Part shown: in pieces, positions 21,919 to 27,935 of the stretch
Layout of the letters: each line of letters opens with the position of its first letter
How positions within the stretch are numbered: the stretch's first letter is position 1
Source: Escherichia phage vB_EcoM_VR26
Strand: one strand, 5' to 3'
Sequence record: NC_028957.1
DNA length: 64,000 nucleotides
Position numbers and translations under genes: made by a program
Notes under the pieces: generated by a model
What the model was told of the DNA's origin: nothing
The model's input: only the letters and a program-made list of their open reading frames with translations
Databases searched by the model: none

Positions 21919-22583
21919 TGAAAACATTAACGAATAAAAAGGCTGGAGTAATTTCCCGCCATGCTAGTTACTTAGAATTTCAAAATACATCAAAAAATAT
22001 TACGGCTGTGATGGGTCAACGAGCAATCGGCGGCCCATCCGCAACACAGACAACCGAAGGTATTTTTTACCCAACAGTTCAGAGCGCAATAGATGATATT
22101 GCGTTTCGATATGAGCTTCCGGTTGGTAGTGTAATTACTAATACAAATAACCTTTCTCCAGCAGCAATCAGTCAGTCGGATAAAATTAAATTTACCGGGT
22201 CTATTTCTGGTGCCGGGGTCGGTGATACTGTTTTATTTTTCATTTTTGGTATTCCGGTTGAGGTTATTGTTGGGGATTCAGCCGTATTGGTTGCTTCCAA
22301 GGTTAACGATGCTTTGTTGACGGCTGTTGCTGATAGTTTAATCGTGTCAAGCTCTGCAATTGATAGTGTGGACCAGTCTATATTAAATATTACATATAAC
22401 GACTATCAAAACCATAATTTTGCACCTTTCGCTCAATATGGTTGTACGCTTAGCCAGACTATTACACAGCAACCGCGCGGCGGTTATGGTTCCTGGGAAT
22501 ATCTTGGAACTTCAACCCAGACGTTATCCGGCGGCTCAGCAAATGGCACAATTTCACTTTATCATTATAAGCGAGTATCATAA
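21918..22583 (+). CDS. 11: gp11 baseplate wedge, short-tail-fiber attachment
   Basis: 221 aa; synteny. Confidence 0.9.
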   Translation: MKTLTNKKAGVISRHASYLEFQNTSKNITAVMGQRAIGGPSATQTTEGIFYPTVQSAIDDIAFRYELPVGSVITNTNNLSPAAISQSDKIKFTGSISGAGVGDTVLFFIFGIPVEVIVGDSAVLVASKVNDALLTAVADSLIVSSSAIDSVDQSILNITYNDYQNHNFAPFAQYGCTLSQTITQQPRGGYGSWEYLGTSTQTLSGGSANGTISLYHYKRVS

Positions 22584-24133
22584 TGACAATGCCAAACACA
22601 CTAAAACACATTAGCGACAAATCAGAATATAAATCATTCGACCCGGCGGGAACGGCTTTCCCGTCGACTGTTACCAACGTACAAGAGGCTTTAGGGTCTC
22701 TTAATAAAATTGCATTAGATGGATTTATCCCAGCCGCTTCGGAAACGACACCAGGGCTCATCAGACTGGCCACCACGCAAGAAGTTCTTGATGGCATTAG
22801 TCCAGACTCTGCTGTGACTCCAGCGACCTTAAAAGCTCGTTTAGACATCCCTACGCAAGCTACCGAAACTTATGTAGGTATTACCCGTTATGCCACCGAT
22901 GCAGAAGCAATCGCAGGGACCGTAACCGATGCAGCTATTGTTCCATCTTCATTAAAAGCAACAATTGATAATGTTTTTACTGTTCGTGTCGGTACCGAAA
23001 ATAACCTGGGTGTTCTTCGTATTAGCACCGAGGATGCAGCTTTAGCTGGTACAGATGATACAACCGCCATGTCTCCGTTGAAAGTTGCTCTGGCAATTGG
23101 CAAAGCAACCGCAGCGCTTCCGACTTATTCAACTGCCACACAAACTGTTTCCGGTTTAGTGCGAATTGCTACAAATGCTGAAGTACAAGCAGGAACTCTG
23201 GGTGACGGCGTGGCAATTTCTCCGGCTGGTTTAAATGCTCGTACAGCAACACAAGACCGCGCAGGGATTATTCGTCTGGGTAATCAGTCAGAAATCAATA
23301 ACAGTGCTGATGGTGTTGCGGTAACTGGTGCAACTCTTAATGGTCGTGGTGCTACAACCGATATTCGTGGTGTCGTTAGATTAACTACTCAGGCTGGGAT
23401 TGCTCCTGGTGGTGATGGAGCTGGAGCCCTGGCCTGGAACGCAGATGTAATTAACACTCGAGGTGGTCAACGAATTAATGGAAGTCTTTCTTTAGATTAT
23501 ATTTCCACTGGCAATATTGACTCCACTACGGCTCATATGGGCGGTCAATTACTTTCTACACAGCGTTATGCTTCCGAACGTGTTCCTGTCGGAACCGTGA
23601 TGATGTTTGCAGGTGATAGCGCTCCTCCTGGTTGGATTATGTGTCATGGCGGTACTGTTAATGGTGACCAATTCCCTGACTATCGAAATACTGTTGGGGC
23701 TCGTTTTGGTGGTGACTGGAATAACCCTGGCGTTCCTGATATGCGCGGCTTATTCGTTCGTGGCGCAGGTACAGGCGGTCATATTCTGAATAGCCGTGGT
23801 CAAGATGGTTATGGTAAAGACCGTTTGGGTGTTGGTTGTGATGGAATGCATGTTGGTGGTGTTCAGGCACAACAAATGTCATACCATAAACACGCTGGTG
23901 GCTGGGGTGAATATCAACGCAATGAAGCTCCATTTGGTGCGTCAGTTTATCAAGGTTATCTTGGTACCAGAAAATATTCAGACTGGGATAATGCTTCGTA
24001 TTTCACAAATGACGGATTTGAATTAGGTGGTGGTCGTGATTCTCTCGGAACGTTAAACCGTGAAGGCCTTATCGGATATGAAACAAGACCTTGGAATATG
24101 TCTTTAAACTATATTATTAAAGTTCACTATTAA
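22583..24133 (+). CDS. 12: gp12 short tail fiber
   Basis: 516 aa; repetitive N-terminal shaft; synteny. Confidence 0.9.
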   Translation: MTMPNTLKHISDKSEYKSFDPAGTAFPSTVTNVQEALGSLNKIALDGFIPAASETTPGLIRLATTQEVLDGISPDSAVTPATLKARLDIPTQATETYVGITRYATDAEAIAGTVTDAAIVPSSLKATIDNVFTVRVGTENNLGVLRISTEDAALAGTDDTTAMSPLKVALAIGKATAALPTYSTATQTVSGLVRIATNAEVQAGTLGDGVAISPAGLNARTATQDRAGIIRLGNQSEINNSADGVAVTGATLNGRGATTDIRGVVRLTTQAGIAPGGDGAGALAWNADVINTRGGQRINGSLSLDYISTGNIDSTTAHMGGQLLSTQRYASERVPVGTVMMFAGDSAPPGWIMCHGGTVNGDQFPDYRNTVGARFGGDWNNPGVPDMRGLFVRGAGTGGHILNSRGQDGYGKDRLGVGCDGMHVGGVQAQQMSYHKHAGGWGEYQRNEAPFGASVYQGYLGTRKYSDWDNASYFTNDGFELGGGRDSLGTLNREGLIGYETRPWNMSLNYIIKVHY

Positions 24134-24141
24134 GGACCAAA

Positions 24142-26310
24142 ATGATTAATAAACTCAGTCTCAAAGAACTGCCGTATAGCATCGGTATTCCAGACGAAGG
24201 TCAACAGAGAATTCGTTGGATACAAAACGGTGATTGTATGACTGCGGCCAGTACCAAATATGGTCATGATGGTAATTTGAACGCCGCCGCGGTTGGCGTT
24301 CAAACAAACGTAGATACACTCGACGACAACTCAAATACATCTAAAGAAAAAATCAATGAAATTATTGATAACGTCAATAATATCCAGGAAGCTTTGGATA
24401 TAACAACTAACACGGAAGTTGTTAAGCAAATTGAAAAAAACCGTACGGATATTCTTGACCTGGACGAACGTCAATTTAATACCGAATTGCTGTCAAGCGA
24501 AACATCAGAAGGTCTTAAAACGTTAAAGGAAGATGTTGGTGTTTATGACCCATTAACCGATTCATATTATCGCACTGTTCGTAATGACCTTGTATGGATT
24601 AAAAATGAATTAGGTCAGTATGTTGACCAAGATATAAATGGTCTACAGGTTATTGGTAATCCATCAAGAGGCATGAAACGTCGCATCATCGATAACAGTT
24701 CGGCTATTGTTGCTCATGGAGTTCGTATTAAGACTCTTGAGGATAATTACCATGATTCTGATGTTGGTTCTCTTAACGTAAAAGTAATTAAAATTCGCGA
24801 AGAATTGGGTGAGTCGACTTTAGCAGTAGGTAAACCAGCTGTATTTGTTCGACTGAATACTCTTGACGACAAAGTAGTCGAAATTGACAAAGATATTGCC
24901 AATATTCAAGAAGATATCGGTTTTGGCACCGGGCTTGCAATTACAACTCGCGTTGAAAATCTTGGTGGACGTGTTTCGGTCAATGAAACAGATATTGCGA
25001 ATATCAAACCAAGACTCACTAAGGTTGAAGCTGATATCGGCACCGCTCTGGAACCATTAACAATTAATGGTCGAATCAGTGCTTTGCGCTCGGATGTTAA
25101 TGGATTGCAGGCTGTTGTTGGTCAGGATTCAAGTTCAGGTTTGCGCGGAACCACTGCATGGCTTTCTCAGAGAATCGGTACAGAGCAATCTCCGGAGCCA
25201 AACACCATCACGTATAAGTTGAATGCAACCACTGCGCTGGCTAATGAAACTGTATCAGGTCTCCAGGATGTGCAGGCTGAAATTGGTACAAATAGCACTG
25301 GTATGAAAGGTTCTATTTTGACTTTAACTAGCCAGATGAACGGGACTAACCCTAACGGTGCTACTGTGGCTGAACGTGGTGTTCTTCCAGTCGTAATTAA
25401 CTTGGATATGTTGATGGCATCCAAGCTGAACGATGCACCGTTGGACAACAAGTTATACGGCCGCAAGCAAGGTGCCTGGTCTGAAATTATCGATTCCACA
25501 ACCGAAGTTGATGCAGTTAAAGCTTCATTGGTAACAACTGATGGACGCGTAACAACATTAACTGGTCGTGTCGATGATAATGATACAACAATCAGTTCGT
25601 TAGATACTCGTTATGGTGCATTGAACACTTCCGTTACGAATGTTAAGGCAGATGTTCTCGCTCTGCAAAATAAAGATACGGAACAAGATGGTCGAATTAC
25701 TGCATTAGAAACGAAGGATACGACTGTTGATGGTAAAATAACCGCATTGGAAACTAAAACATCTACGACCGATGATGATGTCACTGCTTTAGCTTTAGAC
25801 GTTAGCAATGTTGAAGGTGAGCTGGTTACCATTAAAGCAAATATCGAAACAAACAAAGGCGGTTTGGTAACCTTGACCGGTCGAATGACTTCGGCGGAAG
25901 GGGAAATCACTGCAATTAAACTCGATACTGCAAAAATTACACCGTTAACTGCTCGTGTTTCATCAAGTGAAAACGAAATCACTGCAATTAAACTCGATAC
26001 TGCAAAAATTGCGCCGCTAGACGAAAGAGTTACAACAGCTGAAGATGAAATCAATACGATTAAAATCGATACTGCAAAAATTGCACCGTTAACTACTCGT
26101 GTGACAACTCTTGAAGGTACAGTAACTCCGCTCCCTGGTCGCCTGGATGCAGCCGAGACGAAGATAACTACTTTAGAAGGTAAAGTATCAGCCTTAGAAA
26201 CGGAGCTCGCCAAAAGGCCTCCTGTCGCTCCTGTGGCTGATGGTCTCCCTTACGTGCTTGTTGATAATGCATGGGTTCTTTTGTCTACATTCGTGACTGT
26301 TGGACCATAA
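24142..26310 (+). CDS. wac: fibritin (wac) neck whisker, extended coiled coil
   Basis: 722 aa (T4 wac about 487 as recalled); heptad-rich coiled coil; C-terminal foldon-like ...AWVLLSTFV. Confidence 0.85.
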   Translation: MINKLSLKELPYSIGIPDEGQQRIRWIQNGDCMTAASTKYGHDGNLNAAAVGVQTNVDTLDDNSNTSKEKINEIIDNVNNIQEALDITTNTEVVKQIEKNRTDILDLDERQFNTELLSSETSEGLKTLKEDVGVYDPLTDSYYRTVRNDLVWIKNELGQYVDQDINGLQVIGNPSRGMKRRIIDNSSAIVAHGVRIKTLEDNYHDSDVGSLNVKVIKIREELGESTLAVGKPAVFVRLNTLDDKVVEIDKDIANIQEDIGFGTGLAITTRVENLGGRVSVNETDIANIKPRLTKVEADIGTALEPLTINGRISALRSDVNGLQAVVGQDSSSGLRGTTAWLSQRIGTEQSPEPNTITYKLNATTALANETVSGLQDVQAEIGTNSTGMKGSILTLTSQMNGTNPNGATVAERGVLPVVINLDMLMASKLNDAPLDNKLYGRKQGAWSEIIDSTTEVDAVKASLVTTDGRVTTLTGRVDDNDTTISSLDTRYGALNTSVTNVKADVLALQNKDTEQDGRITALETKDTTVDGKITALETKTSTTDDDVTALALDVSNVEGELVTIKANIETNKGGLVTLTGRMTSAEGEITAIKLDTAKITPLTARVSSSENEITAIKLDTAKIAPLDERVTTAEDEINTIKIDTAKIAPLTTRVTTLEGTVTPLPGRLDAAETKITTLEGKVSALETELAKRPPVAPVADGLPYVLVDNAWVLLSTFVTVGP
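25903..26118 (+). repeat. three tandem 72-bp repeats inside wac
   Basis: Units at 25903, 25975 and 26047 all begin GAAATCA...; the first 36 nt of units 1 and 2 are identical; each encodes EIT/NAIKLDTAKIAPL. Confidence 0.8.
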
Positions 26311-26361: not shown

Positions 26362-27300
26362 ATGGCAACTGAATCATACAACCCGAAACAATTAAAAGAT
26401 GCAATCCTTCGTCGTCTTGGTGCTCCAATCACGAATATCGAAGTTACGACCGACCAAGTCTATGATTGCATCCAGCGTGCATTAGAATTATACGGTGAAT
26501 ATCATTATAATGGATATAACAAAGGTTATCAGGCTTTTTATATCGGTCATGATGAAGTTTCACAACAGAAATTCCGCGATGGTGTTTTCGATTTAAAAGG
26601 ACGTAATATTTTTGCAGTAACGCAGATTATTCGTACTAACGTCGGTTCATTAACTTCAATGGACGGACAAGCCACATATCCATGGTTTACAGATTTCGTT
26701 CTGGGCCTTGCCGGGATTAACGGTGGGATGGGTAGCTCGTGTAATAGCTTTGGTCCAAATGCTTTTGGTGCAGACCTTGGTTATTTTACACAGCTTATGC
26801 AATATCGTTCAATGATGCAAGACCTGATGGTTCCGCTTCCGGATTACTGGTATAACGATGATACCGAACAACTTAAAATTATGGGCAACTTCCGTCAGGG
26901 GGATGTGATTGTAATTGAAGTTTATACCAAATCGTATAACGGTGTGGATTCAATGGTTGGCAATACAGCTGGTTATGGTTTTGCCTCGGCTGATTGTGAT
27001 AATCCGTGGAATGCCGGTGCACAGTGGGATAACCCGGCGCGCAGAATAAGCGGTATGAGAGCTGGTGAGGACCTTGGACTTCAAGATGGTGCATACAACA
27101 ACCGTTGGGTGAAAGACTATGCCACGGCGCTTGTTAAGGAAGTTAACGGCAACGTATTGGCTAAACACCAAGGGATGATGATGCCAGGTGGAGTTACGGT
27201 CGATGGTGTTCGTTTAATCGAAGAAGCTCGTATGGAAAAAGAACGTCTCCGCGAAGAACTTGACCTGCTGGATGCACCGACTCCTATATTGGTGGGCTAA
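26362..27300 (+). CDS. 13: gp13 neck protein
   Basis: 312 aa; synteny. Confidence 0.9.
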
Positions 27301-27935
27301 TGGCTACATATTATAGACTTTATGTGTCGACATTTGAAACATCTAATGGGGTAATGGTGTATGGCGGTAAACGTCATTCACCATATGAAGATTTTAAAGC
27401 AGATAGTTATTTTGGGTCGGGTACTATTGTTAAACGAGCTAAACAAAAATATGGAAGAAAATGTTTAGTCGATATTACCTGGTCTAAACCTTTTGAATCC
27501 CCTGCTCTATTAAAGGAAGCCGAGGCTTTACTAGTCAGTGAACTTTTAGAAAGTTTTGATAATTGTGCAAATTTACACCCAACAGGGGGAGGTGGCCCGG
27601 AAGGTTATAGTCGTCCAGAAGATTCCCCTGCTTTTGGTAAAAAGAGAACAGCAGAATCAAGAAAACGAATGTCGGAAGCCGCAAAACAAAGGGAATGGTC
27701 CGAAGAGGGATTAAAACGTCGTAAAGAGGCAACAGCTCGAATGTGGATTGATTTTAAGGACCGACATCCTGATTTTTCTGATGATAAAAATCCGGCCGCA
27801 CGTAAAATTATTACCGGCGACCTAGAATTTTGTACCGGAAGAAAATGTGCAGAATATTATTCGATAACTCCGGCTGCAGTCATTTACAGATGTAAAAGTA
27901 CAGCCGAAAAATGGAAATTATGGAATTATGCGTAA
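27300..27935 (+). CDS. Seg-like GIY-YIG homing endonuclease, degenerate motif
   Basis: YRLYV...[26 protein letters not shown] and NUMOD3-like [13 protein letters not shown] parallel the 12426 ORF; inserted between 13 and 14. Confidence 0.65.

Follow-up and report, generated by a model that had tools for sequence, protein, structure and literature searches.

In T4, the neck whiskers help to attach and retract the long tail fibres (PMC3797505). In a related class, the JS98-type fibritins, a coiled-coil spacer of variable length lies between two foldon motifs (Letarov & Krisch 2013, PMC3797505), and it is by its foldon motifs that the JS98 protein forms trimers (PMC3797505). The section of this review that deals with JS98-like fibritins, citing Latypov et al. 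2007, states that the length of the spacer varies among them (PMC3797505). The RB43-type fibritins vary in another way, with 1 versus 3 Ig-like domains (PMC3797505). A literature search on tandem repeats in the fibritins of Gaprivervirus or JS98 found only the same review, Letarov & Krisch 2013 (PMC3797505).

The fibritin gene described here lies in a window, i.e., the whole stretch of DNA that was analysed, of 64,000 nucleotides from Escherichia phage vB_EcoM_VR26 (NC_028957.1). The window was assigned by megablast to Gaprivervirus (Straboviridae, Tevenvirinae), with Escherichia virus TH15 as the closest record (97.7% identity over 24 kb), and the remaining members of the genus were 92.5–94% identical to it. 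The gene and its neighbours are:

22583..24133, plus strand: gp12 short tail fibre, upstream of wac (Pfam S_tail_recep_bd, gp12-short_mid and Collar; PHROG 910)
24142..26310, plus strand: wac (fibritin, neck whiskers), a JS98-type double-foldon allele with an ATG start, 722 aa
26362..27300, plus strand: gp13 neck protein / head-tail adaptor, downstream of wac (PHROG 211; gp13 in annotated relatives)

The 722-aa product matches PHROG 1056 (“fibritin neck whisker”, E 2e-182) and the T4 fibritin structures 2bsg/3j2o (E 1e-87), and its N-terminal aa 6–84 also match the N-terminal constructs of T4 fibritin, 1ox3/2ibl (E 2e-14). Upstream of the gene lie gp11 and gp12, and gp13 follows it, in the gp12–wac–gp13 order of the annotated relatives. 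These matches and neighbours bear out the naming of the gene as wac in the preliminary description, together with the remark made there that the protein is far longer than that of T4, the chains of which comprise 486–487 aa. The VR26 protein is a JS98-type (double-foldon) fibritin, a class already described, and the account that we favour, with high confidence, is that of a JS98-type fibritin whose spacer carries old paralogous units of labile copy number.

The features of the protein outside the tandem array are:

24154..25386, plus strand: N-terminal neck-attachment domain and segmented coiled-coil shaft, aa 5–415 (phmmer to 2bsg/3j2o)
25420..25500, plus strand: internal foldon-like motif, aa 427–453, SKLNDAPLDNKLYGRKQGAWSEIIDST (Pfam Fibritin_C; T4 foldon positions)
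25498..25902, plus strand: 135-aa coiled-coil spacer block, aa 453–587 (tblastn and gene alignments)
25686..25769, plus strand: older, degenerate duplicate of 42 bp (14 aa) within the block, DGRITALETKDTTV / DGKITALETKTSTT (74% identity, 42-nt spacing)
26119..26214, plus strand: last coiled-coil segment preceding the terminal foldon, aa 660–691 (aligns with T4 aa 422–~455)
26215..26307, plus strand: C-terminal foldon, aa 692–718, and a 4-aa tail, TVGP (aligned to the T4 foldon in 2bsg, 1ox3 and 1avy)

Using HMMER/phmmer, aa 4–420 of T4 fibritin proved collinear with aa 5–415 of the VR26 protein, and T4 aa 422–485 (the last coiled-coil segment plus the foldon) paired in HMMER with VR26 aa 653–719. 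Because T4 fibritin aligns to these two stretches, the extra length amounts to one insert of ~237 aa (aa ~416–652). The conserved N-terminal neck-attachment domain (~50 aa) is present in the VR26 protein and is followed by a long segmented coiled-coil shaft homologous to that of T4 gpwac. The Pfam family Fibritin_C (PF07921) matches aa 369–449 (profile positions 3–90 of 93, E 4.7e-18), and a domain search with the whole protein gave no match of this family at the C-terminus. The internal motif (SKLNDAPLDNKLYGRKQGAWSEII) is identical to the T4 foldon at 8 of 27 positions, among them AP, D, Y, RK, G and W, and the terminal foldon (RPPVAPVADGLPYVLVDNAWVLLSTFV) at 12 of 27. Both foldon-like motifs were found in every one of the 14 Gaprivervirus and Dhakavirus fibritins that were extracted, separated from W to W by 65–337 aa (265 aa in VR26); this inter-foldon spacer of variable length was helical in the AlphaFold2 (AF2) model of the VR26 protein and matched coiled-coil families. 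The coiled-coil segment of aa 660–691 was kept in all relatives compared. The extension had been taken for simply more of the shaft, a description that does not hold, as the additional residues sit past the internal foldon-like motif, which is the JS98-type double-foldon plan. The whisker protein is built of a T4-like neck-binding N-terminus and a segmented, presumably trimeric coiled-coil shaft (aa 1–415), followed by the internal foldon-like motif, beyond which the coiled-coil spacer leads to the second, terminal foldon.

The repeats account for the smaller part of the extra length. Most of the insert is made up of the 135-aa block and the internal foldon-like motif; the three 24-aa units described below contribute 72 aa, and the two additional ones bring just 48 aa beyond the single-copy state, out of a total gain over T4 of 235 residues. 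Among the Gapriverviruses, the alignment of six wac genes placed the block only in VR26, TH15, TH44 and MN01 (absent from P8 and RZ), and in tblastn it was 95–98% identical between VR26 and the other three. It was also found in 28 Dhakavirus-type records, always within wac, with 62–70% amino acid identity, e.g., 64% over 135 aa in JS98 and 70% in IME08, so that the VR26 spacer is homologous to JS98’s own; the shaft is 48–52% identical to the same Dhakavirus proteins, i.e., below the block. The sole non-fibritin tblastn matches of the block were 34% identical over 84 aa. Judged by its distribution and divergence, the block is an old module with no recent expansion. The degenerate 14-aa pair inside it, an older duplicate, is present in the Dhakavirus proteins as well. 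The spacer would have been assembled from helical modules duplicated in succession, with the old 135-aa block leading into the array of 24-aa (72-bp) units.

This array consists of three units:

25903..25974, plus strand: 72-bp unit 1 (u1), aa 588–611, EITAIKLDTAKITPLTARVSSSEN (Tandem Repeats Finder, repeat search)
25975..26046, plus strand: 72-bp unit 2 (u2), aa 612–635, EITAIKLDTAKIAPLDERVTTAED (Tandem Repeats Finder, repeat search)
26047..26118, plus strand: 72-bp unit 3 (u3), aa 636–659, EINTIKIDTAKIAPLTTRVTTLEG (repeat search, unit alignment)

Tandem Repeats Finder reported a period of 72 bp with 2.9 copies at 25903–26108 (78% matches, score 263), and a repeat search recovered three copies spaced 72 nt apart, which in codon register correspond to 25903–26118 (aa 588–659). 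At this offset there are two perfect runs, one of 36 nt (25903–25938) and one of 19 nt (25994–26012). The best 144-nt self-match of wac, also at offset 72, had 109 matches, compared with a mean of 64.3 (sd 2.0) and a maximum of 72 in 300 versions of the gene with shuffled codons, which excludes chance as the origin of the array. Each unit combines an invariant half containing a proline (EITAIKLDTAKIAPL) with a variable half. The pairwise nucleotide identities are 78% for u1/u2, 79% for u1/u3 and 74% for u2/u3. The three in-frame tandem units and their stretches of nucleotide identity are therefore as the preliminary description had them, and the units are far from differing at most positions, the observation that it had named as fatal to its reading.

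The age that had been ascribed to the array needed correction. The VR26 units resemble each other less than they resemble units in other genomes: the closest counterpart of u1 was u1 of TH44 (88% nucleotide identity), those of u2 were TH44 u2 (89%) and MN01 u5 (92%), and those of u3 were MN01 u6 (92%), TH15 (90%), TH44 u4 (89%) and the single unit of P8/RZ (86%). Several phages have the same types of 3′ half in common, “T.RV.SSEN”, “DERV..ED” and “TTRVTTLEG”; the 3′ half of u2 (GACGAAAGAGTT.., “DERV”) recurs in unit 2 of TH44 and in units 4 and 5 of MN01 at 86–92%. Gene-wide, wac of VR26 is about 90–93% identical to that of TH44 and MN01. Since the 88–92% identity to positional counterparts is close to this gene-wide divergence, against 74–79% within VR26, the unit types predate the split of these phages. 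From the sequence comparison, u1 and u2 arose by duplications older than the divergence of the long-allele phages, and the VR26 units, with mutual identities of about 75%, are paralogues of long standing. As the u3 unit is also the one found in single copy in the short alleles and in the Dhakaviruses, it is the ancestral unit.

The copy number is variable. The long-allele sample comprised four phages: TH15 (674 aa, 1 unit), VR26 (722 aa, 3 units), TH44 (748 aa, 4 units) and MN01 (789 aa, 5 units and a 17-aa partial one, ~5.7), and arrays in TH44 and MN01 were also detected by Tandem Repeats Finder. Head-to-tail, in-frame units that differ in whole numbers among close relatives constitute a variable-number tandem repeat. 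The comparison of wac lengths among relatives that the preliminary description had proposed accordingly divides its claim, in that whole-unit differences in copy number (1, 3, 4, ~5.7) do exist, but it is the block and not the units that makes up most of the extra length. Short alleles with a VR26-type shaft were found in 15 other records (541 or 543 aa, taken from match lengths of 1626 or 1613 nt; P8 and RZ were examined directly). In IMG/VR, a search with the whole wac protein returned only distant fibritins (37–50% identity), which left the long-allele sample at four, and one with a degenerate 29-nt pattern of the unit returned no match. A protein search with the C-terminal 293 aa, saturated by coiled-coil words, scored one weak match among the best 8000 candidates. 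In database records, long wac alleles are mislabelled as “hypothetical protein” (MN01) and “phospholipase” (ESCO10), and these labels can be corrected.

The clearest junction was seen in TH15, the wac gene of which differs in length from that of VR26 by exactly 144 bp, i.e., two units. Its single unit is a chimera of the first 49 nt of VR26 u1, including the u1-specific ATTACACCG, and the last 21 nt of VR26 u3 (CGTGTGACAACTCTTGAAGGT). Because the u2 type is older than the VR26/TH15 split, parsimony favours a two-unit deletion in TH15, most simply explained by unequal crossing-over; on this parsimonious reading, the sole demonstrably recent event among the available genomes would be a loss. In the short alleles, the last unit (…IKLDTAKI) is joined directly to the first segment of the block, a degenerate unit-like one (TEVDAVK…), a junction that fits recombination between diverged repeats. 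The synonymous variants of the invariant 5′ half have a mosaic distribution among units and phages, which suggests repeated exchange among units. In the Dhakaviruses another unit, of 31 aa/93 bp, is amplified downstream of a single 24-aa unit, with 2–4 full copies and partial ones. As the sister genus has expanded a different unit at the same place, the inter-foldon spacer is a general hot spot for the in-frame gain and loss of repeats.

Phages of this group practise recombination-dependent replication. Perfect matches of 19–36 nt could support unequal homologous recombination or replication slippage, and, these stretches being retained, the copy number would drift between lineages (1, 3, 4, ~5.7) in steps of 24 residues. 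We infer such a mechanism from the patterns in the aligned genes.

A different explanation is that VR26 did not inherit its long allele (block plus array) vertically but gained it when the 3′ part of wac was exchanged laterally, as a module, with another Gaprivervirus or a Dhakavirus-like phage, so that the differences in length would reflect the swapping of alleles more than local slippage. Long and short alleles do not track genome relatedness, the window being ~93% identical to RZ and P8 (short) and equally to TH44 and MN01 (long), and the gp12–wac cassette is mosaic within the genus, where it occurs in two strongly differing versions, as exemplified by SP18, with 58% identity for gp12 and 49% for the wac shaft versus 96% for gp13. 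The extreme C-terminal tails (TVGP versus TLNPAP) are also mosaic, and the block is better conserved with Dhakavirus (64–70%) than the shaft is (48–52%). However, 64–70% is much lower than a recent transfer from Dhakavirus would leave, and exchange would fail to explain two features that require recombination inside the array, the in-register differences of whole units among the four long alleles and the TH15 junction. As the main source of the length differences, lateral exchange is thus unlikely, if deserving of some weight; as a contribution to the distribution of the alleles it is probable, and in that role it complements the favoured account of old units with labile copy number.

It could also be supposed that the 24-aa units are not coiled coil at all but have some other structure, or that they are repeated binding sites, whose partner might be the long tail fibre or a surface ligand, with the copy number tuning avidity and not length. 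The division of each unit into a proline-containing invariant half and a variable half would be compatible with this, as would the AF2 model (aa 416–722, single sequence, monomer; mean pLDDT 68), in which the unit array consisted of short helices split by loops with low confidence (pLDDT 45–68), and the Fourier heptad analysis, in which the 3.5-residue periodicity across the array was moderate. In the same model, the block was one long helix (pLDDT 80–93) and the segments neighbouring the array were confidently helical; in a monomer, neither the unit array nor the two foldons were credibly modelled. The spacing of the hydrophobic residues within each unit, 3-4-3-3-4-3-4 = 24, fits three heptads with one three-residue discontinuity at the conserved Ala-Pro, as in the segmented coiled coil of fibritin, and this break resembles the loop-interrupted segments documented for that protein (PMC3797505). 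The Pfam and PDB matches over the unit region were all to coiled-coil proteins (tropomyosin, gp26 needle, reovirus sigma-1). A structure other than coiled coil, or a role as binding sites, is, on balance, quite improbable, and these data hint that the units may be helical, forming a segmented coiled coil. One PDB match, to the engineered P22 gp26 tail needle (4lin, E 2e-9), raised the possibility of a module exchange with podoviruses, which was rejected as homology because only repetitive T/S/N-rich heptads of trimeric coiled coils were aligned and because the tblastn matches outside fibritins reached no more than 34% identity over 84 aa; further gp26 chains and reovirus sigma-1 were among the weaker PDB matches. 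Provided that the units are helical, arithmetic at 0.15 nm per residue gives about 3.5 nm per unit and about 35 nm for the spacer as a whole, with a predicted gain of roughly 20 nm from the block. Longer whiskers in VR26 are plausible from the length of the protein, and the spacer might have an effect on the retraction of the long tail fibres.

The reading first given to the array, a recent in-situ tandem duplication in the VR26 lineage that lengthened the shaft and the whiskers, is very improbable. In its favour are the perfect 36-nt stretch that u1 and u2 have in common and the presence of one unit in the nearest relative, TH15, where VR26 has three. Yet 21–26% of the positions differ between units that are 88–92% identical to their counterparts in TH44 and MN01, and u1 and u2 differ at 7 of 24 residues. 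In addition, the u2 3′ half, being shared with TH44 and MN01, predates the VR26/TH15 split, a u1/u3 chimera in TH15 is what a deletion is expected to leave, and two extra units explain only a small part of the residues gained over T4. A recent transfer of the array from a VR26-like donor to TH44 and MN01 is argued against by their ~10% divergence. Finally, short reads can mis-assemble tandem repeats, but an assembly artefact is scarcely credible, since units with 74–79% identity are easily assembled, the array keeps the reading frame, and the same unit types recur in orthologous arrays of independent genomes.

The long, repeat-bearing fibritin of VR26, half again the length of that of T4, therefore falls in the known JS98-type class, with the “recent expansion” corrected. 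A modest addition to the literature searched is that the variable spacer length of this class arises, at least partly, by the gain and loss of whole units of 72 bp (Gaprivervirus) or 93 bp (Dhakavirus), and that for one change in spacer length, in TH15, a deletion junction can be mapped. If the length of the whiskers does affect the retraction of the long tail fibres, the natural alleles with 1, 3, 4 and 6 units provide a ready test series. A more speculative idea, and one that we consider rather unlikely, is that the inter-foldon spacer is a selected, rapidly adjustable “length dial” that sets the reach of the distal foldon. It is based on the separate amplification of the 24-aa unit in Gaprivervirus and of the 31-aa unit in Dhakavirus, and on a copy number that differs in nearly every long allele. 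Were it true, long-tail-fibre retraction and environmental sensing would be altered, or, alternatively, the distal foldon would gain a second target, the T4-like role being left to the internal foldon.

With T4 fibritin (gpwac, 487 aa; PDB 2bsg, 3j2o, 1aa0, 1avy), the VR26 protein has in common the collinear N-terminal domain and shaft and the C-terminal foldon, and its function is presumably the same; T4 differs in having one foldon and in lacking both the ~237-aa insert and the 72-bp array. The RB43-type fibritins offer a parallel in that the length of the fibre is polymorphic through the gain or loss of in-frame repeated modules, but the module in VR26 is a 24-residue coiled-coil segment and not a globular domain. 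The short Gaprivervirus fibritins (RZ, 543 aa; P8, 541 aa; SP18, 525 aa; VR7, 528 aa) follow the same double-foldon plan as VR26. In RZ and P8, the shaft is 96% identical to that of VR26, the 135-aa block is missing and there is one unit; SP18, VR7 and CJ20 have neither the block nor a unit, and the shaft allele of SP18 and VR7 is far removed from that of VR26, with 48–49% identity. The closest likeness is to the JS98-type fibritins of the Dhakaviruses JS98, JS10 and IME08, which have the same domain order, a homologous 135-aa block, the gp12–wac–gp13 arrangement and, at the corresponding position, a 24-aa unit in one copy. In these Dhakaviruses, however, the 24-aa unit remains single and the 31-aa/93-bp unit (…LETGLAAVKVESDKVAGINTRLG…) is amplified, whereas VR26, the shaft of which is only about 50% identical to theirs, amplifies the 24-aa unit and is without the 31-aa unit.

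Two very different versions of the gp12–wac cassette were found within the genus Gaprivervirus, as a comparison of the window (22583–25386) with the relatives L006 and L007 shows. The window and SP18 share 58% identity in gp12 and 49% in the wac shaft, whereas the neighbouring gp13 is 96% identical, which indicates that the short-tail-fibre and whisker genes have been exchanged as a module. Two features lie downstream of the shaft:

window 26296–26310, residues after the terminal foldon, in two forms
window 27300–27935, + strand, 211-aa ORF between gp13 and gp14, its start overlapping the gp13 stop

The post-foldon tail is TVGP in the window, TH15, P8, SP18 and CJ20, and TLNPAP, TLNPVP or TLNSAP in TH44, MN01, RZ, VR7 and the Dhakaviruses. 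Since the form of this tail is unlinked to the long or short type of the wac allele, the distribution points to a recombination breakpoint at the extreme 3′ end of the gene. The 211-aa ORF looks like a mobile homing endonuclease gene, polymorphic for presence and absence, that adjoins the wac locus. Its counterpart is annotated as a “homing endonuclease” (SegC-like) in the records of P8, RZ and SP18, and its sole Pfam match is a weak one to NUMOD3 (E 0.0045); VR7, CJ20 and MN01 have no counterpart, and gp13 is followed directly by gp14 in all three.

Within the fibritin itself, the spacer block (25498–25902, aa 453–587) is matched fairly strongly (E 2e-9) by PDB 4lin, an engineered coiled coil of the P22 gp26 tail needle, and more weakly by further gp26 chains and reovirus sigma-1. 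This likeness probably reflects what T/S/N-rich trimeric coiled coils generally have in common, not homology. Long JS98-type fibritin genes are labelled “hypothetical protein” in MN01 (MT129652.1) and “phospholipase” in ESCO10 (OM386655.1), both of which are likely wrong.

The fibritins of the sister genus Dhakavirus (720–799 aa; wac loci L009–L013) carry a tandem unit of 93 bp, or 31 aa (KITTLETGLAAVKVESDKVAGINTRLGTAEG), in 2–4 full copies plus partial copies of 14–17 aa, for example:

L011 3112–3407, array of the 93-bp unit in a Dhakavirus wac

This unit differs from the 72-bp unit of Gaprivervirus, and the two arrays occupy the same position in the fibritin.
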